This document shows positions 373-20,465 of a stretch of DNA of 41,788 nt, piece after piece. Origin of the DNA: Alphaproteobacteria bacterium (GTDB lineage: Bacteria > Pseudomonadota > Alphaproteobacteria > Puniceispirillales > UBA1172); NCBI GenBank assembly GCA_011522975.1, contig WTHX01000063.1:1-41788 (forward strand), in the 5' to 3' direction. The stretch's first letter is position 1; every line of letters begins with the position of its first letter. A program made the position numbers and the translations under genes. The notes beneath the pieces were generated by a model. That model was not told the origin of the DNA. It made no database searches and saw nothing but the letters and a program-made list of their open reading frames with translations.

Positions 373-1260
373 TCAGCCTTCCATGCGGTAAAATTTTTGA
401 GCAGTGCTGCCAAAGACAGCATCATGCTGGTCTTCTGGGATGAGGGTTTTAAACGCCGTCATCAATCGGTTGTAATCAGAATATAAACGGTCGACAGGGA
501 AGTTAGACCCCACCATACAGCGGCCACTGCCGAAGGCGTCAAGGCAAGTGGTGACGATAGGGGCAAAGCGATCGGTTGTCCAATCATGGTCAAACATCCC
601 CAAGCCTGAAATCTTGCAAAAGACGTGCGGCAATTCCGCCAAGGGCCTCAGTTGATCCTGCCATTTCGCAATGCCTTCCGCGCTGCGATCATAGGGGCTC
701 CCGGCATGGCAAAGCGCAACGTTCAAATCAGGGGTTTTGGCCAATAAAGCCGCCATATCCGCCATAAATTCAGGGATTAATTGCAGATCAAAACTAAGCC
801 CGCGGCGGGCAAGTTCAGCCAAGCCTTCAGCAAAAGCAGGATTATTGATCAACGCATTTGTGCCTGTCTGGGCATCTTCTTCGGGGGCGCGTCCAACGAT
901 TTGGCGAATGCCCCTGACGCTGCCCAATTGTTGCAATTGATCAAGGGTTTGGTTCAGATCTGGCGCGGTTAAATCAGCAAAGGCAACTTGGACCAAAGGC
1001 CAGTCAGGGTTGGCTTTGGCCTGTTCATCGACCCATTGGGCTTCGGCTAAGCCGCTTTCCGCGCCGACTTGGATATGGACCGATCCTGAAAATCCTTCTG
1101 CCATAGCCATGGCGCGAAATTCATCAAGCAAGAAATCACGTTGAATTGGCTGAGGGTCACCGAAAAACCGTTTTTCACCCTTTGCCATTAACCACGGGTA
1201 ATGAACAGCCGATAAATCCCAAAGATGGTGATGCGCATCGATCCTATGAAAACGTGTCAT
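373..1260 (-). CDS. Amidohydrolase-2 family metal-dependent hydrolase, sugar-lactonase-like (L-fuconolactonase type)
   Basis: N-terminal IDAHHHLWD (HxH metal motif), then ALCHAG, CKISG and GSNFPVD, with the spacing expected for PF04909/COG3618 lactonases. I prefer ATG 1260 (MTRFHRIDAHHH) because it forms an ATGA overlap (1257-1260) with the stop of the upstream gene. The ORF-track start at 1314 adds 18 unconserved residues. Confidence 0.8.
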   Translation of the reverse strand: MTRFHRIDAHHHLWDLSAVHYPWLMAKGEKRFFGDPQPIQRDFLLDEFRAMAMAEGFSGSVHIQVGAESGLAEAQWVDEQAKANPDWPLVQVAFADLTAPDLNQTLDQLQQLGSVRGIRQIVGRAPEEDAQTGTNALINNPAFAEGLAELARRGLSFDLQLIPEFMADMAALLAKTPDLNVALCHAGSPYDRSAEGIAKWQDQLRPLAELPHVFCKISGLGMFDHDWTTDRFAPIVTTCLDAFGSGRCMVGSNFPVDRLYSDYNRLMTAFKTLIPEDQHDAVFGSTAQKFYRMEG

Positions 1261-2267
1261 GTGCGCGGCACTTTCGCCATACGGCCCAGAATATCCACCC
1301 CTTGCTGAAGCCAAAAATGCAACAGGTCAATAAAGATCCAGTTTTCAGTCAATTTATCGCCATCACGGCGATAGAGATCAATCACCCGCATATCGCCGGG
1401 CTTATCGCTGGCGGGCATGCCCATAAACCCGCCGGTTGGGGTAAGCGTTAGGTTCGGCCAGCCAAAAAACCCGCCGTAATGGCCTTCGGCAACCCGCGCA
1501 ACATGGCCGTTAAAAATGCGGTCTTTAAAGCCCGCGCGGAACGGCCCTGAATGTTGTTCGGCATAGCGTTCAATGGTGAAAGTCGCGCCAATCCCCGCCG
1601 GCCCCCACCAGACCATATCTTCATTCCAACTGCGGCGGAGTTCTTGAACCAAAGGTTCTTCCCTGCCGCCTTTCCATGTCTTGATGTCTTGCACCATATA
1701 ATCAATAGCAGCGATGGTCTTTTGCCCTTCTTCCGGCGGTTGTGGGTCCATCATGATGCCGTCATGGGTCATGGGCCCGGGCTGAATCATATGCGCGCCT
1801 GTTTGGGGCGGAAATGGATTAAGCCCTGCCTGCATCATCAAATGGGGAATATCAAAATACATGGCGGTTTCGGCAATCTTGCCATCAAACACGCGGTTAA
1901 ATTCAGCATAACGCAACATGGCGATCTTGCCGGTGGGGGCGATTCCCAACCACGGCTGATCAAACAGCCCCATCAGATGCCCCATGGAGACAACCCAAAC
2001 CCCGTCATCACCATCAAGAGTGTTATCCCCCGCCATGAAAATATCAAGGCGGCGTTGCATGGATGTGAGCGATGTTTTTAAAGGCGACCAAAATTCAGCC
2101 GCAACAGCCTCGGCGCCGTGCAATTCATTGAACGGGTGAAACCCCCGCCATTTGTAGTCAGGGCTAACAACCGCTTTTAATGCGTCTGAACTGCCTTTGC
2201 TATCGGCTTGATCAAGGGCTTTGTAGAAATCATGAACCAGTTTTTTTTGGGATTGATAATCAGTCAT
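1257..2267 (-). CDS. Tandem SnoaL/NTF2-like (ester cyclase-like) two-domain protein
   Basis: Two copies of the ester-cyclase signature: WLGIAPTGKIAMLRYAEFNRVFDGKIAE and GDMRVIDLYRRDGDKLTENWIFIDLLHFWLQQGVDILGRM. Paralogous in architecture to the ORF at 8667-9713. I prefer the internal ATG 2267 (MTDYQSQKK). The longer form (2372) would run through the palindromes in the divergent promoter region. Confidence 0.7.
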   Translation of the reverse strand: MTDYQSQKKLVHDFYKALDQADSKGSSDALKAVVSPDYKWRGFHPFNELHGAEAVAAEFWSPLKTSLTSMQRRLDIFMAGDNTLDGDDGVWVVSMGHLMGLFDQPWLGIAPTGKIAMLRYAEFNRVFDGKIAETAMYFDIPHLMMQAGLNPFPPQTGAHMIQPGPMTHDGIMMDPQPPEEGQKTIAAIDYMVQDIKTWKGGREEPLVQELRRSWNEDMVWWGPAGIGATFTIERYAEQHSGPFRAGFKDRIFNGHVARVAEGHYGGFFGWPNLTLTPTGGFMGMPASDKPGDMRVIDLYRRDGDKLTENWIFIDLLHFWLQQGVDILGRMAKVPRT

Positions 2268-2309
2268 TACAGCCTGCACCAAGATAATGGGATGATTTGA
2301 AATAATACC

Positions 2310-2372
2310 TTGCCAAGCCAAATTCACTATGTCTAGAATATTTGCATGCGTATGCAAATTTTTCATGCGCAT
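2310..2372. promoter_or_regulatory. Divergent promoter/operator region: TTGCCA-N18-TAGAAT followed by palindrome ATTTGCAT-GCGT-ATGCAAAT (2340-2359) and ATGCGCAT (2365-2372)
   Basis: Read directly from the sequence. The 8-bp inverted repeat lies immediately downstream of the putative -10, the classical repressor position. The only regulator gene in this operon is the LacI-family gene at 9710. No experimental or comparative support. Confidence 0.35.
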
Positions 2373-2399
2373 TCATAATTTGAAATGGGGAAGGCGCTG

Positions 2400-3449
2400 A
2401 TGGCTGAAATCCAGCTGCGTAATTTGTCGAAGCGATGGGGCAGTTTTGTGGGGGTTGATTGCTTCAACCTGACCATACCTGACAAAGAATTTCTTGTTCT
2501 TTTAGGGCCTTCTGGTTGCGGTAAAACAACCACCATGCGGATGATCGCAGGGCTTGAAGAAGCCACTGAAGGTGAGATTCTCATCGATGGTCAGCGCGTC
2601 AATGATCTGGAGCCTAAAGATCGTGATGTCGCCATGGTGTTCCAATCCTATGCGCTTTATCCGAATATGAATGTCTATGAAAATATTCGGTTTCCGTTGA
2701 AAGTTCGCGGAATTGACGCCGACTCCCATGATGCGAAAGTGCGCCGTGCCTCCGCCATGGTTGAGTTGGATGAGTTTTTGCACCGTAAGCCTGCTGAACT
2801 TTCAGGGGGACAGCGCCAGCGGGTGGCATTGGCCCGCGCCATCGTGCGTGAGCCTAATGTTTTTCTGATGGACGAACCGCTTTCTAACCTCGATGCCAAA
2901 TTGCGGGTATCAACACGGGCGCAGATCAAAAACTTATCCCATGAATTGGCGGTGACGACGATTTATGTCACCCATGATCAGATCGAAGCCATGACCTTGG
3001 CTGATCGTGTCGTTGTGATGGAAAAAGGCATTGTTCAGCAAGTTGGCACGCCAACGGAAATCTATGACAAGCCTGCCAATGCTTTTGTGGCCAGTTTTAT
3101 TGGCAACCCTGCCATGAATTTGATCAAAGGTCATGCCAAAGCAGGCGTTTTTACAGCGGAACATACCGCCATTAAAAAACTCAAAATTGATGACGGGGAC
3201 GTCACTCTAGGTTTCCGTGCTGAAGATGCTGAGGTGGTGTCCTCAAAAGGTGATATCACCGCCCCGATTTATTCGATTGAACTTTTGGGCGATGCCACCA
3301 TGGTCACCGTCCGTATTGGTGAGGCTTTGATCAGTGTGAAAGCTGACAAATCCTATCGTGCTGAAATTGGCGACACGGTTCATATCCATGTGCCTGTCGA
3401 TCATTGTCATCTGTTTGATGCTCAATCAGGTGAACGAATTGGGTCTTAG
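2400..3449 (+). CDS. ABC transporter ATP-binding protein, MalK/UgpC (CUT1 sugar-type) family
   Basis: Walker A GPSGCGKTT, signature LSGGQRQRVALARA, Walker B VFLMDEPLSNLD, H-loop YVTHD, plus a C-terminal TOBE-like regulatory domain. ATG 2400 (MAEIQLRNLSKRWG) has GGAAGG 7 nt upstream. ATG 2385 has no SD. Confidence 0.95.
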   Translation: MAEIQLRNLSKRWGSFVGVDCFNLTIPDKEFLVLLGPSGCGKTTTMRMIAGLEEATEGEILIDGQRVNDLEPKDRDVAMVFQSYALYPNMNVYENIRFPLKVRGIDADSHDAKVRRASAMVELDEFLHRKPAELSGGQRQRVALARAIVREPNVFLMDEPLSNLDAKLRVSTRAQIKNLSHELAVTTIYVTHDQIEAMTLADRVVVMEKGIVQQVGTPTEIYDKPANAFVASFIGNPAMNLIKGHAKAGVFTAEHTAIKKLKIDDGDVTLGFRAEDAEVVSSKGDITAPIYSIELLGDATMVTVRIGEALISVKADKSYRAEIGDTVHIHVPVDHCHLFDAQSGERIGS

Positions 3450-3521
3450 GCCCATGATGCCCCTTAACAGGGGACAACTGAATGTCAGTTCAATGGCATT
3501 CGCAAAAACAGGGAGTTGAAG

Positions 3522-4748
3522 ATGTTTTTGAAAAAACTAACCTTGGCCGGTGCTGCGATTCTGATGTCAGGATCAGCAATGGCCGCATGTAATATCGACG
3601 GTCGCGTCAGCATCGTTGGTAATGAATTCCCCGCCATTCACGCTGTGGCCGATGGGGCCAAGGCATGCTCAGGCGGTGAAGTGAAAGCAAACCTGACGGC
3701 TGATCACCAGAAGATCAATGTTGCTGGTATGACCGGCAACCCTGCTGAATACACGTCAGCGATTATCGCCAATTCATCCATCGTTGCATTGATGAACGAA
3801 GATGTTATTCGTCCATTGGATGATCTGGTGGCAAAGCATGGCCAGTCCTTAAAGCCAAACCAGTTGATCAAGATCAATGGTGAAGTTATGGCGGTGGCGT
3901 TCATGGCGAATGCTCAGCATTTGGTTTATCGTTCTGACGTGCTTGAAAAAGCAGGCATCCAGCCGCCAAAGACCTATGAAGACATGCTCGCAGGGGCTGA
4001 AATCATCCGCAGCAAAGGTCTGATGCAGTATCCTTTGGGTGGTGCTTATAAAGCAGGGTGGAACCTCGCACAGGAATTCACCAATATGTACATCGGTCAT
4101 GGTGGCGAATTCTTTAAGCCAGGCTCTGCTGAAGTATCCATCAACAACGCCCAAGGTGTTGCGACGCTTGAAATGCTGAAAGCGCTGAGCGGTTACATGA
4201 ACCCTGATTTCTTAACCCATGATTCAAACGCGACTTCTGCTGAATGGAAAGCAGGCAATGTTGCGATGATGAACATGTGGGGTTCACGCATGGGGCCATT
4301 GAAAGACCCTGAGCAGTCAACAGCCGAAGTTGTGGCGACAACAACATTGGCCGCGCCAATGACAGTTGGTGGTGGTTCAACCCCTGCAACAACCCTGTGG
4401 TGGGATGGCTGGACTGTGGCAAAGAACGTTTCAGACGCAGATGCAGAAGCCACATTCTTGGCCATGATGAACGGCATCAACCCAAATCGTCTTGATGATG
4501 AAATGGCACCGCTTGCTGTTTGGTTGATCGATGGCTATGAGCCAACACCAGCCGCTGTTGGTGTTTTTGCTGCCGCGAATATGAACGCGACACCATACCC
4601 AATGCTGCCATATCAGGGCCTTCTGCATACCGCCCTTGGTGCTGAAATCGTTGATTTCATGCAGGGCAAGGAAAGTGCTGAAAAAGCATTGGCTGATGTT
4701 GAAGCTGCCTACACAGCCGCTGCGCGTGAAAAAGGCTTCTTGAACTAA
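3522..4748 (+). CDS. ABC transporter periplasmic substrate-binding protein (family 1, carbohydrate/polyol type)
   Basis: Signal peptide MFLKKLTLAGAAILMSGSAMA. Length of about 408 aa and position in the operon fit a CUT1 SBP. GGGAG lies 6 nt before ATG 3522. The ORF-track start at 3516 is a TTG. Confidence 0.9.
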   Translation: MFLKKLTLAGAAILMSGSAMAACNIDGRVSIVGNEFPAIHAVADGAKACSGGEVKANLTADHQKINVAGMTGNPAEYTSAIIANSSIVALMNEDVIRPLDDLVAKHGQSLKPNQLIKINGEVMAVAFMANAQHLVYRSDVLEKAGIQPPKTYEDMLAGAEIIRSKGLMQYPLGGAYKAGWNLAQEFTNMYIGHGGEFFKPGSAEVSINNAQGVATLEMLKALSGYMNPDFLTHDSNATSAEWKAGNVAMMNMWGSRMGPLKDPEQSTAEVVATTTLAAPMTVGGGSTPATTLWWDGWTVAKNVSDADAEATFLAMMNGINPNRLDDEMAPLAVWLIDGYEPTPAAVGVFAAANMNATPYPMLPYQGLLHTALGAEIVDFMQGKESAEKALADVEAAYTAAAREKGFLN

Positions 4749-4759
4749 AACCATATCCT

Positions 4760-4797
4760 TCAGGAAGGGGTTCTCCCCTTCCTGAGTCCAGTTTTTT
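4760..4797 (+). terminator. Intercistronic stem-loop after the SBP gene (11-bp perfect stem, 4-nt loop, distal T6 run)
   Basis: TCAGGAAGGGG-TTCT-CCCCTTCCTGA (4760-4785), then GTCCAG and TTTTTT (4792-4797). It sits between the SBP and permease genes. Hairpins there commonly give partial termination or mRNA stabilisation, raising SBP expression over the membrane subunits. Confidence 0.45.
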
Positions 4798-4812
4798 AAG
4801 GCGCATCCAACA

Positions 4813-5838
4813 ATGAAACACAGTTCATTTTTCTGGTTCATTCTGCCAACAGCAACAGCCATGTTGTTGTTTATTGCGCTGCCTATTATTTCTGTTTTGA
4901 TACAATCGGTGCATACCCCTCATGATGCGGTTTTGATTGAAACTGAAAATTGCGGTCCTTTTGGCTGCACCACCGCCACGACGATTGACCAAGAGGCAAC
5001 CCGCGCGTTACGCGATGAAAAGCCTTTGGGTAAATTTGTTGGGCTGGATATTTATTTTGATCGTGGGCATTTGGCGATTGATGAAGTGGCTGAAACCTGG
5101 GCCAATGCCGATAGCCTTGGCCAGTTTTTTTCTGATTTGAACAATCTGCCATTTTATCGGGCGATGGCTTTTACCTTGACCTTTACCTTTTCGGTGACGC
5201 CATTGATGCTGGTCTTTGGGTTGATGATCGCCTTGGGTGTGAACGCCTTGCATCAACGCATCAAAGGGGTGCTGATCTTCTTTTCATTATTGCCGATGAT
5301 CGTCTCCCCGTTGATCGGGTCATTGGTGTTGTTCTGGATGATCGACAGTCGCGGCATCTTTGGGTCGGCCTTGCAATGGTTATTTGATGATCCTGATTTA
5401 TCGCTGAAAGCCTCAACTGGGCTGACGTGGATCATGTTGATTGTTTATGGGGTTTGGCACGCCGCGCCGTTTTCGTTCATTGTATTTTACGCCGGCTTGC
5501 AAACCTTGCCGCAGGATACGCTGGAAAGCGCGCAAATTGATGGCGCGTCGCGCTGGCAACAGGTGCGCTATGTCATCGTTCCGCATTTGATGCCATTAAT
5601 CACTTTTGTTGCGTTGATCCAATTGATGGATAATTTCAGGGTGTTTGAACCGATTGTCGGGTTTAATTCCGAAGCCCATGCCGCGTCTTTATCGTGGTTT
5701 ATTTTTAACGATCTGGGTGGTGAAACGCGCTTGCTGTCTTCGGCGGCAACATCATCTGTGCTGACCATAATTGGGGTGTCGATTTTGCTGACCCCTGTTT
5801 TGATCCGCACCTGGCGCGATTTCAACGCAAAGAGTTAG
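4813..5838 (+). CDS. ABC transporter permease (MalF/UgpA-like, CUT1)
   Basis: Multiple hydrophobic spans. EAA-loop-like LESAQIDGASRWQQVRYVIVPHLMP. Confidence 0.9.
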   Translation: MKHSSFFWFILPTATAMLLFIALPIISVLIQSVHTPHDAVLIETENCGPFGCTTATTIDQEATRALRDEKPLGKFVGLDIYFDRGHLAIDEVAETWANADSLGQFFSDLNNLPFYRAMAFTLTFTFSVTPLMLVFGLMIALGVNALHQRIKGVLIFFSLLPMIVSPLIGSLVLFWMIDSRGIFGSALQWLFDDPDLSLKASTGLTWIMLIVYGVWHAAPFSFIVFYAGLQTLPQDTLESAQIDGASRWQQVRYVIVPHLMPLITFVALIQLMDNFRVFEPIVGFNSEAHAASLSWFIFNDLGGETRLLSSAATSSVLTIIGVSILLTPVLIRTWRDFNAKS

Positions 5839-5851
5839 TGAAGGTCTGATC

Positions 5852-6745
5852 ATGTCACAATCATACTCTTTAGCCATGAAACGTCAGCCGCTTGGCCTGA
5901 AACTTCTGATCTGGGGCTTTATCAGCCTATGGTTGGTGATCGCAGCCTTTCCATTTTTATGGACGCTTTGGGGTTCATTTAAAATGGAACCTGATTTCTT
6001 TTCCAAAGCAGATTGGTTTAATGCCATTTTAGCACCCCGCACCATCGAAGAACACGGCACGGCTTTTATTGGCGATGGCTATCATGGGGCATGGGTCCAG
6101 GAAGAATTTTGGAAAGCAGTCATTAACACAACCTTGGTCTGTTTCTTTGTGGTCTGCACGTCTTTGACGATTGGAACATTGGGCGGATACGCGTTATCGC
6201 GGTCAAGTTACCGCTATACATTTTGGCTGTTGATCACCGCATTGATCTTTCGGGCCATGCCGCCGATCACTTTGGTGGCGGGGTATCTTCTGCCGTTTTT
6301 TGAATGGAATTTATGGGGTCATTTGACCACAACGGTAATTGTGCTGGTGGCGATCAATCAGCCGTTTACGCTTTGGATGCTGCATAGTTTCTTCCAAAAA
6401 ATCCCGAAAGACCTGGACGAAAGCGCCAAGGTTGATGGCTGTACCCAGTTCCAAGCCTTCCGCCATGTGATTATCCCCGTGATGTGGCCAGGGGTCATCA
6501 CCACAGGGCTGTTTAGTTTCCTTCTGGCCTATAACGATTTTGCTGTGACCTCTATGTTGCTGTCGAAAGAAAACCAAACCATGGTGCCCAAAATTGCAAG
6601 TTTCCTTGGCACCACCCAGACCGAAGGCAATGTTATGTTTGCAGTTTCTGCGGTGGTATCGGCAACAGCACCGTTGTTCATTCTTGTATTATTTTTCCAA
6701 CGTCAGATTGTGTCAGGCCTGACCCAAGGCGCGGTGAAAGGGTGA
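5852..6745 (+). CDS. ABC transporter permease (MalG/UgpE-like, CUT1)
   Basis: Hydrophobic spans. EAA loop DESAKVDGCTQFQAFRHVIIPVMWPG. GTGAAGG lies 7 nt upstream of the ATG. Confidence 0.9.
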   Translation: MSQSYSLAMKRQPLGLKLLIWGFISLWLVIAAFPFLWTLWGSFKMEPDFFSKADWFNAILAPRTIEEHGTAFIGDGYHGAWVQEEFWKAVINTTLVCFFVVCTSLTIGTLGGYALSRSSYRYTFWLLITALIFRAMPPITLVAGYLLPFFEWNLWGHLTTTVIVLVAINQPFTLWMLHSFFQKIPKDLDESAKVDGCTQFQAFRHVIIPVMWPGVITTGLFSFLLAYNDFAVTSMLLSKENQTMVPKIASFLGTTQTEGNVMFAVSAVVSATAPLFILVLFFQRQIVSGLTQGAVKG

Positions 6746-6773
6746 TGGCTATGGCAATTACAGGAGCGGTACG

Positions 6774-7301
6774 ATGAAGGGTTCACGCCCCGAACAAGCG
6801 GTATTAAGCCGCGATACGGACTTGTCTAAAACAGATGAAACCCGCGCGGTAATCGAAGGCATGGTCGATGGCCTTAATGATCACCGTATTGATGATATTG
6901 GTCAGTTTTTTGCCGAAGGTTTTCGGTGGATGGGCAATACAGGTTGCGGCACAAAAGAAGGTCTGAAAGCCTTTCAAGACAATTGGCAGCGGCCATTCCA
7001 AGCCGCCTTTTCCGATAAAACCTGCATTGATGAAGCCCGCCTTTATATGGGGGAATGGGCGGCTGCTTTTGGCCGACAAGAAGCAACACATTCAGGTGAA
7101 TTTATGGGGATTGCCCCAACAGGAAAGAAAGTTGAAATCCGCTATATGGATTTCTGGAAAGTAGAAGACGGTAAAATTACCGACAATTGGGTCATGGTCG
7201 ACTTTCCCCATGTCATGGCGCAATTGGGCGTTGATGTGTTCAACGGCGAAGGCTGGGAAGCCTATGACCGCGGAGAACGCACCCCGCCATCTCCCGAATA
7301 A
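6774..7301 (+). CDS. Single-domain SnoaL/NTF2-like (ester cyclase-like) protein
   Basis: [46 protein letters not shown] matches the motif repeated in the three two-domain paralogs. GGAG lies 7 nt upstream of the ATG. Confidence 0.75.
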
Positions 7302-7359
7302 AACGAAACATGAAGGGGGCCCCTACGGACTGACCCCAATAGAATTAGAGGATAATGTT

Positions 7360-8670
7360 ATGGCTATTGAGTATTTAAAGCGCAGTAAATCAGAAGCAGA
7401 AATTCGCGAGGATGACGCTAAAACGCGCGCCACGGTCGAAGCAACTTTGGCAGATATTGAAAAGCGCGGCGATGCAGCGGTGCGCGAATTATCCCAAAAA
7501 TTTGACAATTACGCGCCTGAAAACTTTCGCCTGTCGGCAAGCGAGATTGAAGCGGCGATGAATAAAGTATCCACCCGCGATATGGAGGATATTAAATTTG
7601 CCCAAACCCAAATCCGCCGCTTTGCCCAAGAGCAAAGAGCCAGCATGACCGATGTTGAGGTTGAAACGCTGCCGGGTGTTATTTTGGGGCATAAAAATAT
7701 CCCTGTGCAATCGGTGGGCTGTTATGTGCCGGGCGGCAAATTCCCCATGGTGGCGAGCGCCCATATGTCTGTTTTAACCGCATCGGTTGCAGGCGTGCCG
7801 CGGATTATCGCATCAGCCCCGCCCGTCAACGGGGAGCCGCATCCCGCGATTGTTGCCGCTATGGCCATGGGCGGCGCCCATGAAATCTATGTCATGGGCG
7901 GCATCCAAGCGGTGGGTGCTATGGCGATTGGCACTGAGACAATCGACCCTGTTCATATGTTGGTTGGGCCCGGCAATGCCTTTGTTGCCGAAGCCAAACG
8001 CCAGTTATACGGCCGTGTCGGGATTGACCTTTTCGCAGGGCCAACGGAAACCATGGTGATTGCTGATACTACTGTTGATGCTGAGATTTGCGCGACTGAT
8101 CTCTTGGGGCAAGCCGAACATGGCTATAATTCTCCGGCTTGCATGATCACCAATTCGCGGCAATTGGCTGAAGAAACGCTGGAAGAAATTGACCGACTTT
8201 TACAGATTTTGCCGACATCTGAAACCGCCAGCATCAGTTGGCAAGATTACGGCGATATGATCGTCTGTGACAGTTACGATGAAATGTTGGCGGTTGCCAA
8301 TGACATGGCCTATGAGCATGTTCAGGTGATGACTGATCGTGATGATTGGTTCCTCGAACAAATGCATTCCTATGGGGCGTTGTTCTTGGGCGCGCGGACC
8401 AATGTTGCCAATGGCGATAAGGTGATCGGCACCAACCACACTTTGCCGACGAAAAAAGCAGGCCGATATACGGGCGGCTTATGGGTGGGCAAGTTCCTGA
8501 AAACCCATTCCTATCAGAAAGTCATGACCGATGAAGCCGCGGCGATGATCGGTGAATATGGCTCACGTCTTTGCATGCTGGAAGGTTTTGTCGGCCATGC
8601 CGAACAATGCAATATCCGTGTCCGCCGCTATGGGGGCAAGAATGTACCTTATGGTGAGGCGGCCGAATGA
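7360..8670 (+). CDS. Histidinol dehydrogenase-family NAD-dependent dehydrogenase (HisD paralog, not in a his context)
   Basis: [34 protein letters not shown] and [13 protein letters not shown] are HisD-family (PF00815) hallmarks. 436 aa from ATG 7360 (GAGGA upstream). The ORF-track start at 7210 would overlap 92 nt of the upstream gene. Confidence 0.85.
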
Positions 8671-9713
8671 CATCAGCCAGCCATCAAGCCGATGTGATTA
8701 AACCGATACGGCAGGCCATGTATGCTTTTGAGGCATCGTCTGTTCAATCGGCTTTGGCGGCTGTGCTGGCGGCGGATGCAGAAATTCATCTTTGTCATCC
8801 TTTTGGGGATTGTCAGGGGGCGGATGATTATTACGCGACGGCGTATCAGCCGTTATTTCATGCGATCCCTGATCTTGAGCGCCGTGATCTGATTGTTATG
8901 TCAGGCCATGATGGTAAGAGCGATTGGATCGGGGCTTGCGGGTATTACGCCGGCAGTTTCATCCGGCCGTTTTTGGATATCCCGCCAACAGGCCATCATT
9001 GTGCCATGCGGTTTCATGAATTTTATCGCATTGAGGGTGGTCAGGTTGTTGAAATACAAGCGATTTGGGATATTCCAGAGATGATGATGCAGGCCAATGC
9101 TTGGCCAATGGCCCCATCATTGGGGCGGGAATGGCAAGTGCCTGGCCCGGCAACCCAAGATGGGCTTGCGCCGCGCCATGACCCTGAACGCGGTGAAAAG
9201 GCAAAACAAATCGTTATTGATATGCTGACTGACATGACACGGCATCCGTTAGAAGGCGATGCCAAGGTCATGAATCTTGACCGTTATTGGCATCCGCGCA
9301 TGACATGGTATGGCCCTGCAGGAATTGGAACAGCGCGTGGATTGGCAGGGTTTAGGCATTGGCATCAAATCCCGTTTTTAAACGCTATGCCTGATCGTAA
9401 AAGCGGGGCGGCGGTTGATCTGGATATTCATTTCTTCGGCGATGGCGATTATGTCGCTGTCACGGGCTGGCCAGATATGGCCATGACAATCACCCAAGAT
9501 GGCTGGTTGGGGATCGCGCCTTCAGGACAGTCAATCACCATCCGCAGTCTTGATTTCTGGCGGCTTGAAGGTGAGTTGATCCGAGAAAATTGGGTGCTGG
9601 TTGATCTCTTGGATGTTTATCGCCAATTGGGGGTTGATGTGCTGGGGCGGATGCGTGAATTCAACAAGGCCAGATCCATGGGTGAGATCAGTTTGGAGCA
9701 TGATTATCAATGA
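8667..9713 (+). CDS. Tandem SnoaL/NTF2-like two-domain protein (paralog of 1257-2267)
   Basis: [28 protein letters not shown] and [54 protein letters not shown] overlap with the HisD-like stop (8667-8670). Confidence 0.75.
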
Positions 9714-10759
9714 CCAAAATGACGGCCAAACAGCGCATGGGTGCATTGAATAAAGTCACTGCCGTTGATGTGGCGGAGCGGGCTGGCGTGTCGCAATCTG
9801 CCGTCAGCCGTGTTTTTACCCCTGGGGCATCGGTGTCTCCTCAAACTAAAAACAAAGTCTTGAAAGTGGCCATGGAATTGGGGTATCGCCCCAACTCACT
9901 GGCGCGCGCCATGGTTTCTGGCAAGAGCCGTATGATCGGCTTGGTGGTGGCTTATCTGCAAAACCAATTTTACCCAGAAGCCATTGAAAAATTATCCAAA
10001 GCCATGCAGGAAAGAAATTATCACCTGCTTGTTTTCATGACGTCCAAAACCGAAGGTGATGTCAGTGAGGTCTTTGACGAAATTTTAGATTATCAGGTTG
10101 ATGGCATCATCGCAGCATCGGTGGCTTTGTCATCAGATCTATCGAAACGTTGCGCCAATGCGGGCGTGCCTGTGGTGCTGTTTAACCGGTCGCAAGATGA
10201 TGACAGTTTATCATCCGTCACGTCTGAAAATTATCAAGGCGGGCGAAAAATTGCTGAACATTTGATCGCAACTGGCCATCAGCGAATCAGTTTTATCGCG
10301 GGTTGGGAAGGGGCATCGACCCAACGTGACCGGCAAGCCGGATTTATCGACGCGCTGCAAGATGCGGGTGTTGATCTGTGGTCGCGCGGTGTTGGAAATT
10401 TCATCATGGAAGATGCCAAAGCCGCCACCCATGCGATGTTTGCGGGTGGGGTGGAAAATGGTCCGGATGCTATTTTTGTGGCGAATGACCATATGGCTTT
10501 TGCGGTGATGGACACATTGCGTTTTGAATTGGGAATTGCTGTCCCTGAGCAGGTTTCAGTGATTGGGTATGATGATGTGCCGGCCGCGTCTTGGCCATCT
10601 TATAACCTGACCACCGTCCGCCAGCCAACCAACCAGATGGTCACAGCGACTGTTGATCTGTTATTGGCGCAAGTCGAAAATACGGACTTATCGTCCACAG
10701 CCCCTCGTCAAATTAAAATTGATGGCCCGTTGATCATCAGAGGATCAGCAAAGTCATGA
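9710..10759 (+). CDS. LacI-family transcriptional regulator
   Basis: N-terminal HTH VTAVDVAERAGVSQSAVSRVF, YRPNSLARAM hinge, and a periplasmic-binding-protein-like effector domain (VIGYDD). ATGA overlap with the upstream gene (9710-9713). Confidence 0.9.
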   Translation: MTKMTAKQRMGALNKVTAVDVAERAGVSQSAVSRVFTPGASVSPQTKNKVLKVAMELGYRPNSLARAMVSGKSRMIGLVVAYLQNQFYPEAIEKLSKAMQERNYHLLVFMTSKTEGDVSEVFDEILDYQVDGIIAASVALSSDLSKRCANAGVPVVLFNRSQDDDSLSSVTSENYQGGRKIAEHLIATGHQRISFIAGWEGASTQRDRQAGFIDALQDAGVDLWSRGVGNFIMEDAKAATHAMFAGGVENGPDAIFVANDHMAFAVMDTLRFELGIAVPEQVSVIGYDDVPAASWPSYNLTTVRQPTNQMVTATVDLLLAQVENTDLSSTAPRQIKIDGPLIIRGSAKS

Positions 10760-10778
10760 ACAATAAAGGAAGAAGAAT

Positions 10779-11762
10779 ATGAAAGGCTTTAGTCAAAAAT
10801 TTATCGATTTTCCAGATTACATTCTGGGCATCACCAAAGAGATTTGGGAAGACCGCGGAATTGCGACGCTGAATGAATATTACGGTGAAGATATGTATTT
10901 GCGCATGCCTTTGGGGGTTTATCGCGGCAATCAAGGCGTGATCAGCAAAACCATGTCCACGCTGGTGGAATTTCCTGACCGTGAATTATTGGGCGAAGAC
11001 GTGATTTGGTCCGGCAATGAAGATGACGGTATGTTAAGCTCTCACCGTCTTTATTGCACAGGCACGCATCTTGGCCATAGCATGTTTGGTGAGCCGACAG
11101 GAAATACTGTTCACTTCCGTGCCATCGCGGATTGCTATGCCATCAATAACGCGATCACCGATGAATGGCTGGTCCGTGATTATGGCGGTGTCGCCAAGCA
11201 AATTGGCTGGACCGCCCAAGAAGCCGCTGCGCAATTGATCGAAGCCGAGGGCGGCATTGATCACTGTGAAAAACCGCTGACCCCCCACAATGATATGGTC
11301 GGGCCATATACCGGCAAGGGCAATGATAATGAATGGGGGCAGAGATATGCCGATGTGCTTAACCGCATTATGTCGGCTGATCTGGCCGTGATCCCAGAAG
11401 CCTATGATCGTGCCATCAAAGGCGAATACCCAGGCATGACAACGGCAAGAGGCTGGGGTGAAGTTGATCAATTTTGGATTGGCCTGCGGGCGGCTTTCCC
11501 GAACGCGACATTTAAAATTGAACATCAAATTGGCCGTGATGACCCGATGATGCCGCCGCGCGCTGCGATCCGCTGGTCTTTGCATGGTAAGCATGATGGC
11601 TGGGGGTCTTTCGGGCGTCCAACAGGGGCAGAGGTCTATATCCTTGGTATGGCGCATGCTGACTTTGGTGCTTTGGTTACGGATCAGCCTAAGATTAGAA
11701 ATGAATTCGCGCTTTATGACGAAGTGGCGATCTGGAAACAAATTTTGATGCAAACGGGCTGA
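10779..11762 (+). CDS. Tandem SnoaL/NTF2-like two-domain protein (more divergent paralog)
   Basis: MFGEPTGNTVHFRAIADCYAINNAITDEWLVRD and SFGRPTGAEVYILGMAHADF...NEFALYDEVAIWKQI. AAGGAAG lies 6 nt upstream of the ATG. Confidence 0.65.
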   Translation: MKGFSQKFIDFPDYILGITKEIWEDRGIATLNEYYGEDMYLRMPLGVYRGNQGVISKTMSTLVEFPDRELLGEDVIWSGNEDDGMLSSHRLYCTGTHLGHSMFGEPTGNTVHFRAIADCYAINNAITDEWLVRDYGGVAKQIGWTAQEAAAQLIEAEGGIDHCEKPLTPHNDMVGPYTGKGNDNEWGQRYADVLNRIMSADLAVIPEAYDRAIKGEYPGMTTARGWGEVDQFWIGLRAAFPNATFKIEHQIGRDDPMMPPRAAIRWSLHGKHDGWGSFGRPTGAEVYILGMAHADFGALVTDQPKIRNEFALYDEVAIWKQILMQTG

Positions 11763-11795
11763 TTGTCCGTGAAGACCAATGAAGGGGGGAATGAT

Positions 11796-12782
11796 ATGAC
11801 AAAAACCGATATTGAAAGCCGCATTGTCCGTTATGGTGATCTGGTGCCATGCCGCACGGCGTTTATTGATGCCCATACCCCTGGGTCGGATCAAAAGGAA
11901 AATTTCACCATTATCGGTGGCGGTGTTTCTGAAGCCGCGGATCAACATGTTCATATTAAAGACACGCCGGGGTTTAATATTGGCGCGGCGGGGCAACCAC
12001 CGAAATGCCGGAATTCTTTGCATACGCACCGCACGGCCGAAGTGTTCTTTGTGTTGTCAGGCCGCTGGCGGTTCTTCTGGGGGAACACGGGGTCAGACGG
12101 CGAAGTCGTGCTGAACGAAGGGGATGTGATTAATATCCCCACCGGCATTTTCAGAGGCTTTGAGAATATCGGCAATGATTATGGGATGATCATGGCGATC
12201 CTTGGGGGTGATGATGCTGGTGGCGGTGTGATTTGGGCTCCGCAAGTGATCAACGAAGCCCAAGATCATGGCTTGATTCTGGGTCAAAATGGCGTGCTCT
12301 ATGACAGCAAAAAAGGTGAGGCTCTGCCAGATGGTTTTGCCCCGATGCCAACCCTTGATGATGATCAGATGGCGTTATTCCCCCATGTCACCAGCGCTGA
12401 ATTTGTGCCGCGTTTTGTCGCCCGCTATTGGGATATGATGGCGATGGCCGACCATCAGCCGGCCTTGGTGATCGATGAGCATGGCATGCTGAAAGACCGC
12501 CCGGGGTTTAGTCTTGAATTGCTTCGTGAGGGGTCGCTTGATGATACGGCTTACTCAACAGACCGCCATGAAGTTTTAATGGTGATGCGGGGGCATTGGT
12601 CTGTGGATCTGGACGATGACCGTGTCACATTGGCCCCGGGTGATGTGTTTGCCATCCCGCCAGGGATGAAGCGGAAACTTACCCCTGCGATGAGCGGTGA
12701 AGCCAGTCTCTTTCGGGTGCGCAACACCGATGATACTGCAGGCCCAACCATGGCCTTTGAAACAGCCGCGCCATCACGGTAA
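11796..12782 (+). CDS. Bicupin protein; N-terminal domain has an HxHxxxE metal motif, C-terminal domain lacks metal ligands
   Basis: Domain 1: LHTHRTAEVFFVLSG (cupin motif 1) and GDVINIPTGIFRGFEN (motif 2, with Arg where His is usual). Domain 2: PGDVFAIPPGMKRKL with no HxH. ATG 11796 has GAAGGGGGGA upstream. The ORF-track start at 11763 is a TTG. Confidence 0.7.
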   Translation: MTKTDIESRIVRYGDLVPCRTAFIDAHTPGSDQKENFTIIGGGVSEAADQHVHIKDTPGFNIGAAGQPPKCRNSLHTHRTAEVFFVLSGRWRFFWGNTGSDGEVVLNEGDVINIPTGIFRGFENIGNDYGMIMAILGGDDAGGGVIWAPQVINEAQDHGLILGQNGVLYDSKKGEALPDGFAPMPTLDDDQMALFPHVTSAEFVPRFVARYWDMMAMADHQPALVIDEHGMLKDRPGFSLELLREGSLDDTAYSTDRHEVLMVMRGHWSVDLDDDRVTLAPGDVFAIPPGMKRKLTPAMSGEASLFRVRNTDDTAGPTMAFETAAPSR

Positions 12783-12801
12783 GGTTATAAGGGAGGAAAA
12801 T

Positions 12802-13935
12802 ATGACCAAAATTTTAACAAGCCATGTGGGGTCATTGCCCCGAACCCAAGAGGTCGTCGATTTCATTTTCGCACGGGAAAATGAAAAGCCTTATGATCAA
12901 TCTGCATTTAATGATTGCATGGCATCTTCCTGTGCCGAAACAGTACGCCGTCAGGTTGAAGCAGGGATTGATATTGTCTCCGATGGTGAGACGTCAAAAA
13001 TCTCGTATGCCACATATGTCAAAGATCGTTATACAGGGTTTTCTGGCGACAGCCCTCGCAATGCCCCTGGCGATTTAAAATTATTCCCAGGCTTTCTAAA
13101 ACGCTTAGCCGATGATGGCGGCACGCCGCAATACGCCCGCCCCATGTGTACTGGGCCTGTGACGTCAAAAGGCCAAGATGAATTAAACGCCGATATTGCC
13201 AATTTAAAAGCGGCTATGGCCCAACATGGGGCTAAACGAGGCTTTATGAACGCGGCATCCCCTGGGGTGATCTCTTTGTTTTTGCAAAATGATTATTACG
13301 CCAGCCGTGATGACTATCTGGCGGCTTTGGCCGATGCCATGAAAGAAGAATACGAAACCATTGTTGCCGCTGGTCTTGATTTGCAATTGGATTGCCCTGA
13401 TCTGGCGCTTTCGCGGCATATGTTATTCGGGGATTTATCCGATGATGAATTTGTCAAAATTGCCAATACCCATGTTGACGCGTTGAACCACGCGTTGCGC
13501 GATGTCGATCCTGATCGCGTGCGGGTGCATATTTGCTGGGGCAATTACGAAGGCCCGCATATTTGCGATATTGATATGGATAAAGTGTTTTCAACATTGA
13601 TGAACACCCGCGCCCGCTATGTTTTGTTTGAAACATCAAACCCGCGCCATGCCCATGAATGGACGGTCTTCCGCGATCGCAAATCTGAAATTCCAGATGA
13701 TAAAATTCTGGTGCCCGGGGTTGTTGATACCACCACCAATTTTGTCGAACATCCTGAACTGGTGGCAGAACGGATCAAACGTTTCGTTGATATCGTTGGC
13801 GCTGATCGGGTGATTGCAGGTTCAGATTGCGGCTTTGGCACTTTTGCAGGTTTCGGGGCGGTAGACCCTGACATTGCTTATGCCAAATTATCCAGCCTTG
13901 CAGAAGGCGCGGCTTTGGCCTCAAACCGTCTGTAA
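12802..13935 (+). CDS. Cobalamin-independent methionine synthase C-terminal-domain-like (MetE-like, Meth_synt_2) Zn enzyme
   Basis: TSHVGSLPR N-terminus. RVHICWGNYEG (His-x-Cys) and GSDCGFG (Cys) match the MetE Zn-ligand positions. GGGAGG lies 5 nt before ATG 12802. Single domain, 377 aa, so not a full-length MetE. Confidence 0.75.
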   Translation: MTKILTSHVGSLPRTQEVVDFIFARENEKPYDQSAFNDCMASSCAETVRRQVEAGIDIVSDGETSKISYATYVKDRYTGFSGDSPRNAPGDLKLFPGFLKRLADDGGTPQYARPMCTGPVTSKGQDELNADIANLKAAMAQHGAKRGFMNAASPGVISLFLQNDYYASRDDYLAALADAMKEEYETIVAAGLDLQLDCPDLALSRHMLFGDLSDDEFVKIANTHVDALNHALRDVDPDRVRVHICWGNYEGPHICDIDMDKVFSTLMNTRARYVLFETSNPRHAHEWTVFRDRKSEIPDDKILVPGVVDTTTNFVEHPELVAERIKRFVDIVGADRVIAGSDCGFGTFAGFGAVDPDIAYAKLSSLAEGAALASNRL

Positions 13936-13939
13936 GAGA

Positions 13940-14644
13940 ATGGCGCGACTTGACCCGCTGGTGATGCTGCCGGGGATGATGTGCGATGAACGGCTGTTCG
14001 CTCCGCAAAAGGCGGTGATCGCCAATGGCCGTGATGTCATCATCCCTAAGTTATATGGTGGGGAGACCATCACTGATTTAGCGCGTCTGATTTTGGCGCA
14101 ATTGCCAATACGTTTTGCGCTGGCTGGTCTTTCTATGGGCGGTATTGTGGCGATGGAAATGATGCGCCAAGCCCCGCAGCGGATCAGCAAAATGGCGATT
14201 ATGGACAGCAACCCCTTTGCCGAAGATTCCGCCCGGCAGTCATTACGCGACATCCAGATCGATAAAGTTAAAAAAGGGGATTTGCGGGCAGTGATGCGCG
14301 ATGACATGAAACCGCATTATCTGGCCAATACGCCCAACCGTCAGCAGGTGCTTGATCTTTGTATGGCGATGGCGCTTGATCTGGGGGATGATGTTTTTAT
14401 TCAGCAATCGCGCGCTTTGGCCAGCCGTCCGGATCAGTCGGGTTCTTTAGCCAAAGTTAAAGTGCCAAGCCTTATACTTTATGGCGCAGAGGACCAACTT
14501 TGCCCTGAGGACCGTCATTTGGCGATGCATGACTTGATTGCAGGATCAAAACTGGTGAAAATCGAAGGCGCGGGGCATTTGCCCTGTTTGGAAAAACCTG
14601 ATGAAACAACAGCAGCATTGCAACGCTGGTTGGAGGAAGAATGA
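13940..14644 (+). CDS. Alpha/beta-fold hydrolase
   Basis: Nucleophile elbow GLSMGG, late GAEDQLCP and GAGHLP (catalytic His region). ATG 13940 lies 5 nt after the upstream stop. Confidence 0.8.
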   Translation: MARLDPLVMLPGMMCDERLFAPQKAVIANGRDVIIPKLYGGETITDLARLILAQLPIRFALAGLSMGGIVAMEMMRQAPQRISKMAIMDSNPFAEDSARQSLRDIQIDKVKKGDLRAVMRDDMKPHYLANTPNRQQVLDLCMAMALDLGDDVFIQQSRALASRPDQSGSLAKVKVPSLILYGAEDQLCPEDRHLAMHDLIAGSKLVKIEGAGHLPCLEKPDETTAALQRWLEEE

Positions 14645-15336
14645 ACGAGACTTTATTGGCGCTGTTACGCCGTATTGATACCCCAAGTGTTTGTAATGCG
14701 ATTGAAACTGCTCAAGGCAAGCGTGGGTTTAATGCTTTTACCCGTGGCACAATGCTGGCGTCTGACCCAACCGCAGGGGCAATTGTCGGTTATGCCCGCA
14801 CCGCTAAGATCGCCGCCAATGAGCCGCCACAAGACCCGCCAGAGGTAATTAAAAAAAGGCGTATGGCTTATTATCAGCATATGGCTGAAGGCCCAAGACC
14901 AGCGGTTGCTGTGGTTGAAGATGTTGATTTTCCCCATGCTGTTGGTGCGTTTTGGGGAGAGGTGAACACCACTGTCCATAAAGGCTTTGGCCTGTCAGGG
15001 GTGCTGACCAATGGCGTGATGCGGGATTTGGGCGATCTGGCCTCTGATTTTCCTGTTATCGCAGGGTCCATTGGCCCGTCCCATGCCTTTGTTCATGTCC
15101 GTGAAATTGGCACACCTGTAACGATTTTTTCCATGACCGTAAATGATGGTGATTTGATTCATGCCGATCGCCATGGCGGTGTTGTGATCCCGCCTGAAGT
15201 GATTCCTGATCTGGAAGCCGCTATTTTAAAAATGTTTGCAACCGAAAAACTGATTCTTGAACCTGCCCGCCAAGATGATTTTGACTTTGAAGCCTTTCAA
15301 AAAGCATGGGCGGCATTTGAGGCGGCGCGGACGTAA
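14641..15336 (+). CDS. RraA-like / 4-hydroxy-4-methyl-2-oxoglutarate (CHA/HMG) aldolase-family protein
   Basis: Size of about 230 aa. N-terminal TPSVCNAIE and the central VVEDV...GAFWGEV...GFGLSGVLTNGVMRD pattern are typical of PF03737. ATGA overlap with the upstream gene (14641-14644). Confidence 0.65.
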   Translation: MNETLLALLRRIDTPSVCNAIETAQGKRGFNAFTRGTMLASDPTAGAIVGYARTAKIAANEPPQDPPEVIKKRRMAYYQHMAEGPRPAVAVVEDVDFPHAVGAFWGEVNTTVHKGFGLSGVLTNGVMRDLGDLASDFPVIAGSIGPSHAFVHVREIGTPVTIFSMTVNDGDLIHADRHGGVVIPPEVIPDLEAAILKMFATEKLILEPARQDDFDFEAFQKAWAAFEAART

Positions 15337-15398: not shown

Positions 15399-15462
15399 TT
15401 GACGGTGATGCAGAATTTCGGTTCTGATAATGGCGTGCAATCAGATCAAAGGATGAGTGATC

Positions 15463-18610: not shown

Positions 18611-18640
18611 TGGGGCGGGTGTCCCCTCATGGAGTGAAAC

Positions 18641-18820: not shown

Positions 18821-18857
18821 AATCTCTTTCAAGGGATTTCCTTTTTGGAATATCAAG

Positions 18858-20445: not shown

Positions 20446-20465
20446 GGCGGTGGATACTGGTTATC

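Follow-up and report, generated by a model that had tools for sequence, protein, structure and literature searches.

Gene content and organization of the island

Contig WTHX01000063.1 (assembly GCA_011522975.1), from a member of the Puniceispirillales within the Alphaproteobacteria, was analyzed over positions 1 to 41,788; this stretch, with a GC content of ~50%, is referred to as the window. Its left part carries a gene island in which four genes for SnoaL/NTF2 proteins (A to D) are interleaved with genes for an ATP-binding cassette (ABC) importer, a LacI-family regulator, and several putative catabolic enzymes (Table 1). The original prediction, made from the sequence without database searches, described seven SnoaL/NTF2 domains in these four genes and placed the start of the island at position 1257. 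Profile searches confirmed the seven domains, with PF07366 E values of 2e-16 to 8e-23, all above the gathering score. The number of domains per gene is two, one, two, and two in coordinate order and not one, two, two, and two as had been proposed. The families assigned to the other genes (CUT1 importer, HisD, LacI, bicupin, Meth_synt_2, α/β hydrolase, RraA-like, and Amidohydro_2) were recovered in the same way. The Amidohydro_2 gene lies on the divergent arm and is coupled to gene A by an ATGA overlap (1257–1260); its inclusion moves the start of the island to 373.

The region from 373 to 15336 probably constitutes one LacI-repressed catabolic island, and it is very likely that its genes form a single unit for uptake and degradation of a compound. 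The ATGA start/stop overlaps noted earlier at 1257, 8667, 9710, and 14641 are all present, and the other genes inside the operon are separated by 3–66 bp. A gap of 120 bp follows the RraA-like gene, after which three further genes on the same strand reach to 18341, and the island may extend to this point. The last of them encodes an FrhB-like protein with an N-terminal cysteine motif, CIGCGLC, that may bind an Fe-S cluster. Of the 61 orthologous loci described below, L001, the nearest relative, is the only one with these three genes. They probably represent an addition specific to this lineage, and their membership in the pathway is uncertain.

Table 1. Features of the island and its downstream neighbors in the window, with the occurrence of each protein in 61 orthologous loci
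Feature	Position	Strand	Length (aa)	Evidence or description	Loci (of 61)	Median identity (%)
Amidohydro_2 protein, COG3618-type, lactonase-like	373–1260	−		PF04909, 119 bits	24	63
Tandem SnoaL/NTF2 protein A	1257–2267	−	336	two PF07366/PF12680 stretches, E 2e-16	61	62
Sigma-70-like promoter match	2310–2339	+		TTGCCA-18-TAGAAT; best of region, consensus match only
Candidate LacI operator	2343–2356			TGCATGCGTATGCA; 14-bp palindrome, 29 bp upstream of ATPase start codon
ABC ATPase, MalK/UgpC type with TOBE domain	2385–3449	+		PF00005 and PF08402
Periplasmic solute-binding protein, CUT1	3516–4748	+		SBP_bac_1/8 (Pfam)		51
Hairpin	4759–4786	+		12-bp GC-rich stem with T-tract, directly 3' of binding-protein gene
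ABC permease 1	4813–5838	+		PF00528
ABC permease 2	5852–6745	+		PF00528
ABC parts taken together					55–58	51–80
Single-domain SnoaL protein B	6774–7301	+	175	PF07366, 80 bits, E 2e-22	61	85
HisD-family, HpsN-like putative four-electron alcohol dehydrogenase	7360–8670	+	436	PF00815, 442 bits	57	80
Tandem SnoaL/NTF2 protein C	8667–9713	+	348	two stretches, E 8e-23	61	63
LacI-family repressor, embedded in operon	9710–10759	+		PF00356, PF13377, and PF00532	56	64
Tandem SnoaL/NTF2 protein D	10779–11762	+	327	two PF07366 stretches, E 3e-19	60	62
Bicupin	11796–12782	+		Cupin_2 and Cupin_1	55	64
MetE C-terminal-domain-like Zn enzyme	12802–13935	+	377	PF01717	49	82
α/β Hydrolase, PcaD-like (3-oxoadipate enol-lactonase-like)	13940–14644	+		Pfam and NCBIfam	48	54
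RraA-like protein	14641–15336	+		PF03737, 63.5 bits	45	70
Amdase/maleate-isomerase-like gene	15457–16299	+		Pfam match
Sulfotransfer_5 gene	16353–17093	+		Pfam match
FrhB-like Fe-S flavoprotein gene	17097–18341	+		Pfam match

Co-occurrence and distribution

Co-occurrence of the island genes was scored by tblastn of the island proteins against 61 orthologous loci, each with ~20 kb of context. The grouping of import with degradation put forward in the original prediction was borne out by these counts (Table 1). The SnoaL genes are the most constant members, and gene B is the most conserved of them; the solute-binding protein is the least conserved part of the island. Gene order is mostly as in the window, and where it is shuffled the set remains together.

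The island is widespread. Protein C has >5,000 homologs at E ≤1e-10, and a close relative of its gene was found in at least 590 GTDB species when one genome per species was scanned. Carriers include Rhodobacteraceae (Ruegeria, Shimia, Planktomarina, and HTCC2150), Roseibium, Hoeflea, Halomonas smyrnensis, Leucothrix, Thiotrichaceae, freshwater Comamonadaceae, SAR324, and Oceanospirillaceae. Tritonibacter appeared in protein, contig, and plasmid searches. Protein C is 69% identical to a copy in a Puniceispirillales metagenome-assembled genome, and single protein clusters hold hundreds of metagenomic copies. The expansion of one small fold had been called unusual. This description stands for an operon as such, but the expansion is not specific to the window and is a fixed feature of a very common island.

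Chance juxtaposition of unrelated operons, with SnoaL genes that have no connection to the importer, could account for the shuffled gene order in four loci (L058, L064, L068, and L074) and for the Microbulbifer enzymes, which have no ABC genes nearby. Against this, the genes stay together, even where rearranged, in several proteobacterial classes, in SAR324, and in a haloarchaeon; genes of different families are translationally coupled; and one conserved candidate operator serves the divergent promoters. We regard a chance assembly as extremely improbable.

The SnoaL/NTF2 proteins

All four proteins match both PF07366 (60–81 bits, cutoff 28.4) and PF12680 (44–65 bits, cutoff 27), and the Pfam searches placed every one of the four open reading frames (ORFs) in the SnoaL/NTF2 clan. 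The sequence signature described for the domains (G.aPTG...dfw..dGki.enW...D...lGvd) can be seen when the seven half-proteins are aligned and is degenerate in the C-terminal domains of A and D; in the former, PASD replaces the PTG of the signature. Proteins A and C are paralogous over their full length (32.5% identity, E 6e-50), and B resembles their C-terminal domains. Protein D belongs to a separate tandem lineage, and its link to B in BLAST searches is weak.

Many polar residues of protein C are invariant in both domains across 12 orthologs. Its AlphaFold model (predicted local distance difference test score [pLDDT] 76.5, predicted template modeling score 0.81) consists of two α+β cone domains. 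In Foldseek searches each of these domains matched IdmH, ChaU, and AclR/SnoaL2 with a probability of 1.0 and a target-normalized template modeling (TM) score of ~0.8. Protein B aligns with SnoaL (1sjw) along the whole domain (E 1e-10). Catalysis by SnoaL uses Asp121 together with His119, His107, and Gln105. In the phmmer alignment with 1sjw, the residues of B that correspond to SnoaL Q105, H107, H119, and D121 are Y124, D126, N138, and V140. An acidic residue occupies the position of SnoaL His107 in five of the seven domains. On the NF033407 model the score is 40 bits (cutoff 200). The "ester cyclase" label used previously therefore does not carry over: because the catalytic residues of SnoaL are replaced in B, its chemistry is not that of SnoaL and ester cyclase activity should not be assumed.

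The fold matches to anthracycline cyclases and hydroxylases, together with source annotations that read "ester cyclase" or "polyketide cyclase," raise the question of a biosynthetic, polyketide-type cluster. No polyketide synthase (PKS), acyl carrier protein, ketosynthase, glycosyltransferase, or exporter was found in the window or the loci examined; the genes are linked with those of an importer, a repressor, and a putative aldolase; and the counterparts of SnoaL Asp121 and His119 in B are Val and Asn. A biosynthetic role is accordingly most improbable.

The HisD-family dehydrogenase

The start of the HisD-family gene was corrected to the ATG at 7360, which is preceded by a GAGGA ribosome-binding site. 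The encoded protein scores 427 bits on TIGR00069 (cutoff 244). Its best PDB matches are structures of HpsN, the (R)-2,3-dihydroxypropane-1-sulfonate (DHPS) dehydrogenase (8wwe, 373 bits; 8v35, 356 bits), and these outscore the true HisD structures (≤259 bits; 4g07, 259 bits). The comparison with HpsN drawn in the original prediction was thus apt. In alignments with HpsN and HisD, the QAEH motif, the EH motif (Glu-His pair), the GDK motif (Asp-Lys), and the C-terminal GHAE His are retained. In both enzymes, the substrate coordinates Zn via a 2-OH or 2-NH2 group plus a third group, and from this mode of binding a –C(OH)–CH2OH end would be expected in the substrate of the island enzyme.

The specificity motif reads G-R-Y-[AS]-H in HpsN, where the final His binds the sulfonate, and G-S-A-P-L in HisD (PMC11382572). 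The island enzyme has neither; its motif is GKFPM, kept in 66 of 71 orthologs, with Met in place of the sulfonate-binding His of HpsN. Judged by this motif, the GKFPM enzymes represent a third specificity class of HisD/HpsN dehydrogenases. In L001, the nearest relative (a 461-kb ENA contig), the gene is split into two called ORFs (232 and 205 aa; 8695–10004), which could reflect a frameshift, a pseudogene, or an assembly error.

The remaining catabolic enzymes

The N-terminal barrel of the bicupin contains the only conserved metal site of the protein, H76-x-H78-x3-E82, which is invariant in 59 of 59 orthologs. The His of motif 2 is replaced by an invariant R120, and the ligands of the C-terminal domain are not conserved. 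An AlphaFold2 model of moderate quality (pLDDT 70) was nearest, by Foldseek, to quercetin 2,3-dioxygenases, gentisate/salicylate 1,2-dioxygenases, 3-hydroxyanthranilate dioxygenase, and oxalate decarboxylase. At the sequence level, YxaG gave a marginal match (E 0.004).

The MetE-like protein retains a Zn site (H243, C245, E277, and C343) that is invariant in 54 of 54 orthologs. It consists of a single barrel, not the two barrels (~750 aa) of MetE, and falls below the cutoff of every methionine-synthase equivalog (best score 98 bits, cutoff 406). Its sequence contains VGSLPRT and DGE, which we take to be the homocysteine-binding motifs of MetE, and with that equation it suggests alkyl transfer to a thiol.

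The nucleophile of the α/β hydrolase (Ser65 in GLSMGG) is invariant in 47 of 47 orthologs. The RraA-like protein is a putative class II 4-hydroxy-2-oxoacid aldolase or oxaloacetate decarboxylase. Its R128-D129 pair, presumably the catalytic Arg and metal-binding Asp of this fold, is invariant in 50 of 50 orthologs. It scores 27.5 bits on the LigK/PcmE equivalog TIGR02798 (cutoff 304.5). The best evidence for an aldolase is indirect and comes from two betaproteobacterial loci and Microbulbifer (L058, L070, and L089), where HpcH/HpaI aldolase genes, encoding another class II pyruvate aldolase, occupy the place of the RraA-like gene at the operon end. The best NCBIfam match of the Amidohydro_2 protein is L-fucono-1,5-lactonase (131 bits, cutoff 400) and its best PDB match is 4dlf (E 4.5e-23); its HHH and NFPVD motifs are conserved in 27 orthologs.

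Importer and regulation

The importer has the components of a CUT1 system: its binding protein belongs to SBP_bac_1, both permeases belong to BPD_transp_1, and its ATPase is of the MalK type and ends in a TOBE/OB domain. The ATPase passes the NF008653 model of the UgpC subfamily (455 bits, cutoff 432). The true start of the solute-binding protein may be the ATG at 3522. Its PDB matches are weak (E 5e-9 to 2e-6) and comprise sugar-binding and sulfoquinovosyl glycerol-binding proteins. The hairpin between the binding-protein and permease genes may, from its sequence, act as an intra-operon attenuator or mRNA stabilizer. Hairpins placed behind binding-protein genes often raise the level of binding-protein mRNA relative to that of downstream genes.

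The candidate operator TGCATGCGTATGCA lies in the 117-bp divergent intergenic region, immediately after the promoter match, and has the form typical of the LacI family (a palindrome with a central CG). It is a single match in the window and is not significant alone. The motif TGCAWNCGNWTGCA is present in one or two copies in the A/ATPase intergenic region of 38 of the 40 loci listed, from 50 extracted. LacI control, part of the original prediction, is well supported as a prediction because this motif recurs at the equivalent intergenic position and the predicted palindrome is conserved in the divergent promoter region.

Variants and neighboring genes in other lineages

In 64 loci a gene for a KduD-like short-chain dehydrogenase/reductase (SDR) of 254 aa lies between C and LacI (e.g., L002, 11050–11814). 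It scores best on the KduD and gluconate-5-dehydrogenase models. The SDR gene is not present in the window, in L001, or on plasmid pMaD9 of Marinovum algicola (L084), and in the window the ATGA overlap of C and LacI (9710–9713) leaves no room for it. Either another dehydrogenase substitutes for the SDR or the pathway is shortened in this lineage.

Further variants of the island are found in the soil organism Ensifer adhaerens and a marine Rhizobium, with one A/C-like gene each (tblastn), as well as in Microbulbifer and Marinomonas. A Vibrio pelagius plasmid (L085, 5382–21984) carries a reduced island made up of the CUT1 importer and four tandem SnoaL genes, with soxBDAG-purU next to it on the same strand. 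This arrangement suggests that the SnoaL proteins alone release a product for the N-demethylating oxidase.

A plasmid of the haloarchaeon Halobellus limi (L086, 12812–19205) carries four tandem and one single SnoaL gene plus the MetE-like gene. The five SnoaL genes are consecutive and annotated as "ester cyclase"; if each of the four long genes has two domains, as in the window, together they would encode nine SnoaL domains. The plasmid copy indicates that the core has been transferred between domains of life. Its neighbors encode an aldehyde dehydrogenase and a dehydrogenase of the 3-hydroxyisobutyrate dehydrogenase (HIBADH) family, a metallo-β-lactamase-type hydrolase, and an HpaI-like aldolase; the two dehydrogenases may, by analogy, be a two-step equivalent of the HisD paralog. 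Also adjacent are genes for a two-domain vicinal oxygen chelate protein (248 bits on catechol 2,3-dioxygenase) and a LigM/DesA-like aminomethyltransferase of 450 aa (470 bits on the syringate O-demethylase DesA).

In nine Ruegeria-type loci, an S-adenosylmethionine methyltransferase gene lies between the bicupin and MetE-like genes, and in three loci a dimethylglycine dehydrogenase (DMGDH)-like FAD/GcvT gene adjoins the island. Taken together, these contexts point to methyl loss, oxidative C–C cleavage, and final aldol cleavage. On pMaD9, where the flanks lie at 991–3056 and 18551–23032, genes for dmdA, SBP56 (methanethiol-oxidase-like), and an acyl-CoA synthetase adjoin the island. Glutathione S-transferase genes flank it in two Roseobacter-group loci (L084 and L002, the latter at 1–333). 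The flanking genes of pMaD9 and L002 may be coincidental.

Proposed pathway and substrate

A sequence of steps can be put forward for the island. Their order, all substrates, and what each SnoaL protein does are inferred, and we offer this assignment of enzymes tentatively and with more doubt than trust. In the absence of inducer, the LacI repressor would bind the palindrome at 2343–2356 and shut the divergent promoters. The CUT1 system would import a hydrophilic, hydroxylated small molecule. The HpsN-like enzyme would convert a –C(OH)–CH2OH terminus to an α-hydroxy acid at the expense of two NAD+, and in most relatives, though not in the window, the KduD-like SDR would oxidize a secondary alcohol. 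The SnoaL proteins could serve as cofactor-free acid-base catalysts, acting as isomerases, dehydratases, hydrolases, or lyases on keto/enol intermediates or removing substituents. The MetE-like Zn enzyme may transfer an alkyl group, for instance methyl, to homocysteine or another thiol, and the single-site bicupin may carry out a metal-dependent, probably dioxygen-dependent, C–C or ring cleavage. Ester or lactone intermediates would be opened by the PcaD-like hydrolase and the Amidohydro_2 enzyme. Finally, the RraA-like protein would split a 4-hydroxy-2-oxoacid into pyruvate or oxaloacetate and a small acid.

The substrate had been described as sugar-like or polyol-like. That description remains one option, but the context in other lineages points to demethylation and oxidative ring or C–C cleavage. 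This reading is drawn from the LigM/DesA-like O-demethylase, the catechol-2,3-dioxygenase-like protein, and the DMGDH-like or soxBDAG genes found nearby. A methyl-bearing cyclic polyol, or a compound that forms a catechol or enediol, fits the context better than a plain sugar.

Several observations weigh against the proposed pathway. Every enzyme is far from its characterized relatives, with equivalog scores far below cutoff. The bicupin does not have the fourth cupin ligand, its model gave TM scores of only ~0.45–0.5, and it could be an isomerase or decarboxylase instead. The MetE-like gene is absent from 12 of the 61 loci (e.g., that of Tritonibacter mobilis), and the lower pathway is not always linked, as V. 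pelagius has only the importer and the tandem SnoaL genes. The demethylase, dioxygenase, and aldolase genes of Halobellus might be part of another cluster next to the SnoaL genes. A sugar-type substrate is just as compatible with the LacI regulator, the CUT1 importer, and the KduD-like SDR.

A rival reading, the one inferred in the original prediction, is a pathway for a plain sugar, sugar acid, or acyclic polyol, with neither oxidative ring cleavage nor demethylation. Here the HisD paralog would yield an aldonic- or uronic-type acid, the Amidohydro_2 enzyme would open a lactone, and the SnoaL proteins would be mutarotases, epimerases, or dehydratases. The bicupin would be a KduI/IolB-type isomerase and the RraA-like protein would cleave a 2-keto-3-deoxy acid. 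The pairing of a CUT1 importer that has a MalK/UgpC-type ATPase with a LacI regulator is in keeping with such a route, as are the nearest solved relatives of the binding protein, which bind sugars (weak matches), the closeness of the Amidohydro_2 protein to L-fucono-1,5-lactonase, the KduD and gluconate-5-dehydrogenase scores of the SDR found in relatives, and the inositol-type genes that adjoin the island in Marinomonas. However, the island contains no kinase, no dehydratase of the enolase superfamily or IlvD type, and no glycoside hydrolase. Known sugar routes have no place for a MetE-like Zn enzyme, which is strongly conserved here; the matches of the bicupin are to Cupin_2 and dioxygenase folds and not to KduI/IolB; and demethylase and extradiol dioxygenase genes accompany the island in Halobellus, Vibrio, and some alphaproteobacterial contexts. 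We consider a plain sugar pathway rather unlikely.

A further candidate substrate is an onium compound that bears methyl groups and ends in a diol such as 2,3-dihydroxypropyl; the head group of a betaine lipid after deacylation, or an analog of DHPS with a sulfonium or ammonium group, would be an example. The HpsN-like enzyme would oxidize the glyceryl end, the MetE-like enzyme would demethylate the onium group onto homocysteine, and the remaining N-methyl groups would pass to enzymes of the DMGDH or sarcosine-oxidase type. Ugp-type CUT1 systems take up glyceryl diesters, which would suit this substrate. The MetE-like protein keeps its Zn ligands as well as VGSLPRT and DGE, presumed here to be the homocysteine motifs. 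DMGDH-like genes (three loci), soxBDAG-purU (V. pelagius), and dmdA with the SBP56 gene (pMaD9) adjoin the island. The HisD paralog resembles DHPS dehydrogenase most, and the Asp-Lys pair in contact with the anionic group is retained (PMC11382572). On the other side, the demethylation genes are adjacent in few loci and may be coincidental, and the bicupin, hydrolase, and aldolase are left without a role. Betaine-type compounds, moreover, usually rely on BCCT- or ProU-type carriers and AraC/GbdR-type regulators, not on a CUT1 importer with LacI. An onium substrate is therefore improbable.

One more substrate class can be proposed on chemical logic, as a long shot: the mycosporine-like amino acids and their 4-deoxygadusol/gadusol core. 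The core of these compounds is a methoxylated C7 cyclohexenone with a –C(OH)–CH2OH group. The tandem SnoaL proteins would strip the imine- or enamine-linked amino acids without a cofactor, the HpsN-like enzyme would oxidize the hydroxymethyl group, and the MetE-like enzyme would remove the O-methyl group. The bicupin would then cleave the cyclic reductone and the RraA-type aldolase would split a 4-carboxy-4-hydroxy-2-oxoacid. Bacteria have been reported to convert shinorine and porphyra-334 into mycosporine-glycine and 4-deoxygadusol, with no genes assigned to the conversion (review PMC3083659, citing Dunlap and Shick). Such substrates are consistent with the occurrence of the island in algal-associated, saltern, freshwater, and soil organisms. 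Vibrio harveyi was not among the top 120 homologs of the Vibrio copy, which gives the proposal no support.

Whatever its structure, the compound is likely to be a common aquatic metabolite without an assigned sink, and its identification would add a term to gene inventories of the marine carbon cycle. It would also give functions to three tandem NTF2 families, to the GKFPM class of HisD/HpsN dehydrogenases, and to a short catabolic MetE-like Zn enzyme. For the island genes, the names given in databases ("ester cyclase," "histidinol dehydrogenase," "methionine synthase," and "demethylmenaquinone methyltransferase") are probably all functionally wrong.

Flanking genes in the window

A ZnuC/ZnuB/ZnuA-type metal ABC importer (18858–21359) follows the island after a gap of 516 bp, and L001 has the same neighbor. 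The stretch 21421–28964 encodes a class V aminotransferase, an ScfR-type regulator of short-chain acyl-CoA metabolism (helix-turn-helix plus M78 peptidase), a Zn-type alcohol dehydrogenase, and, on the minus strand, a two-subunit succinyl-CoA-ligase-like pair. An oxalate/formate-type module occupies 29353–35726, with a GntR/FCD regulator, a thiamine diphosphate enzyme (oxalyl-CoA decarboxylase-like), a family III CoA-transferase (formyl-CoA transferase-like), a formyltransferase, and a formate-tetrahydrofolate ligase. Next come a universal stress protein gene and a TctCBA tripartite tricarboxylate transporter (36821–39921). Directly after tctA, an ORF of 612 aa (39922–41760) has no Pfam match at E ≤1e-5.

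Comparison with known systems

The island is of the repressor-controlled uptake-plus-catabolism type and does not form a new category. The earlier statement that its enzyme set matches no nameable pathway held up. In NCBIfam, no pathway-specific equivalog was above cutoff, and only the generic UgpC ATPase subfamily and hisD domain models passed. No description of the cluster was found in the full-text literature, subscription-only papers excluded. Apart from HpsN, the PDB sequences matched by six of the enzymes and by the binding protein were all remote or uncharacterized. The homarine operon homABCDER was considered and found to be unrelated; it has an FAD enzyme and an aldehyde dehydrogenase, and the paper makes no mention of SnoaL, HisD, or cupin proteins.

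DHPS catabolism, in which HpsN acts with HpsO and HpsP (Cupriavidus pinatubonensis and the Roseobacter group), shares with the island the HpsN-like enzyme with its Zn site and its Glu-His and Asp-Lys pairs. In relatives of the window, an SDR of the adh_short_C2 family stands beside the island as HpsO stands beside HpsN (PMC11382572). The systems differ in transport, as the island importer is of the CUT1 type and not a tripartite ATP-independent periplasmic (TRAP) or major facilitator superfamily (MFS) transporter, and the seven SnoaL domains, the bicupin, and the MetE-like enzyme have no counterpart in DHPS catabolism. SuyAB, Xsc, CuyA, and the Zn-dependent alcohol dehydrogenase HpsP were not found in the island, either in the window or in the loci examined. 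The DHPS pathway itself was rejected, given the missing sulfonate-binding His and the lack of a sulfolyase.

The lower part of the 4,5-cleavage pathway for protocatechuate and gallate in Sphingobium sp. SYK-6 (LigI lactonase and LigK aldolase, with O-demethylation by LigM and DesA) likewise combines functions that can be recognized in the island: a lactonase-like Amidohydro_2 protein, an RraA-fold aldolase candidate with the Arg-Asp pair, a candidate ring-cleaving-dioxygenase-like enzyme, and a hydrolase. In Halobellus, a DesA/LigM-like demethylase and an extradiol dioxygenase adjoin it. Unlike that pathway, the island has no LigAB, LigC, LigJ, or LigU; its Amidohydro_2 protein is closer to sugar lactonases, its dioxygenase candidate is a bicupin, and its importer and regulator are of the sugar type. 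With LigAB, LigC, and LigJ absent and scores far below cutoff, identity with the 4,5-cleavage pathway was rejected.

Three groups of SnoaL/NTF2 enzymes bear on the tandem proteins. The methyl-ester cyclases SnoaL, AknH, and DnrD and the hydroxylases SnoaL2 and AclR of anthracycline biosynthesis have their Pfam family and fold in common with the island proteins, whereas the island setting is catabolic and without a PKS, and three of the four island proteins are two-domain fusions. A catabolic precedent is LdpA, an NTF2-like diarylpropane lyase of sphingomonads that catalyzes cofactor-less C–C cleavage beside a –CH2OH group in a methoxylated lignin-dimer compound; unlike in its setting, there is no lignostilbene dioxygenase in the island. 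The polyether epoxide hydrolases/cyclases Lsd19 and MonBI-MonBII were the only full-length two-domain matches to protein C among the Foldseek hits listed (4rzm, 3rga, and 9kw6; E 3e-9 to 4e-8), with an identity of 12–15% and a root-mean-square deviation of 16–18 Å, a value that does not imply the same domain arrangement. They are biosynthetic enzymes of actinomycete polyether clusters, and they show how two NTF2 domains in one enzyme can work one after the other on a single substrate.

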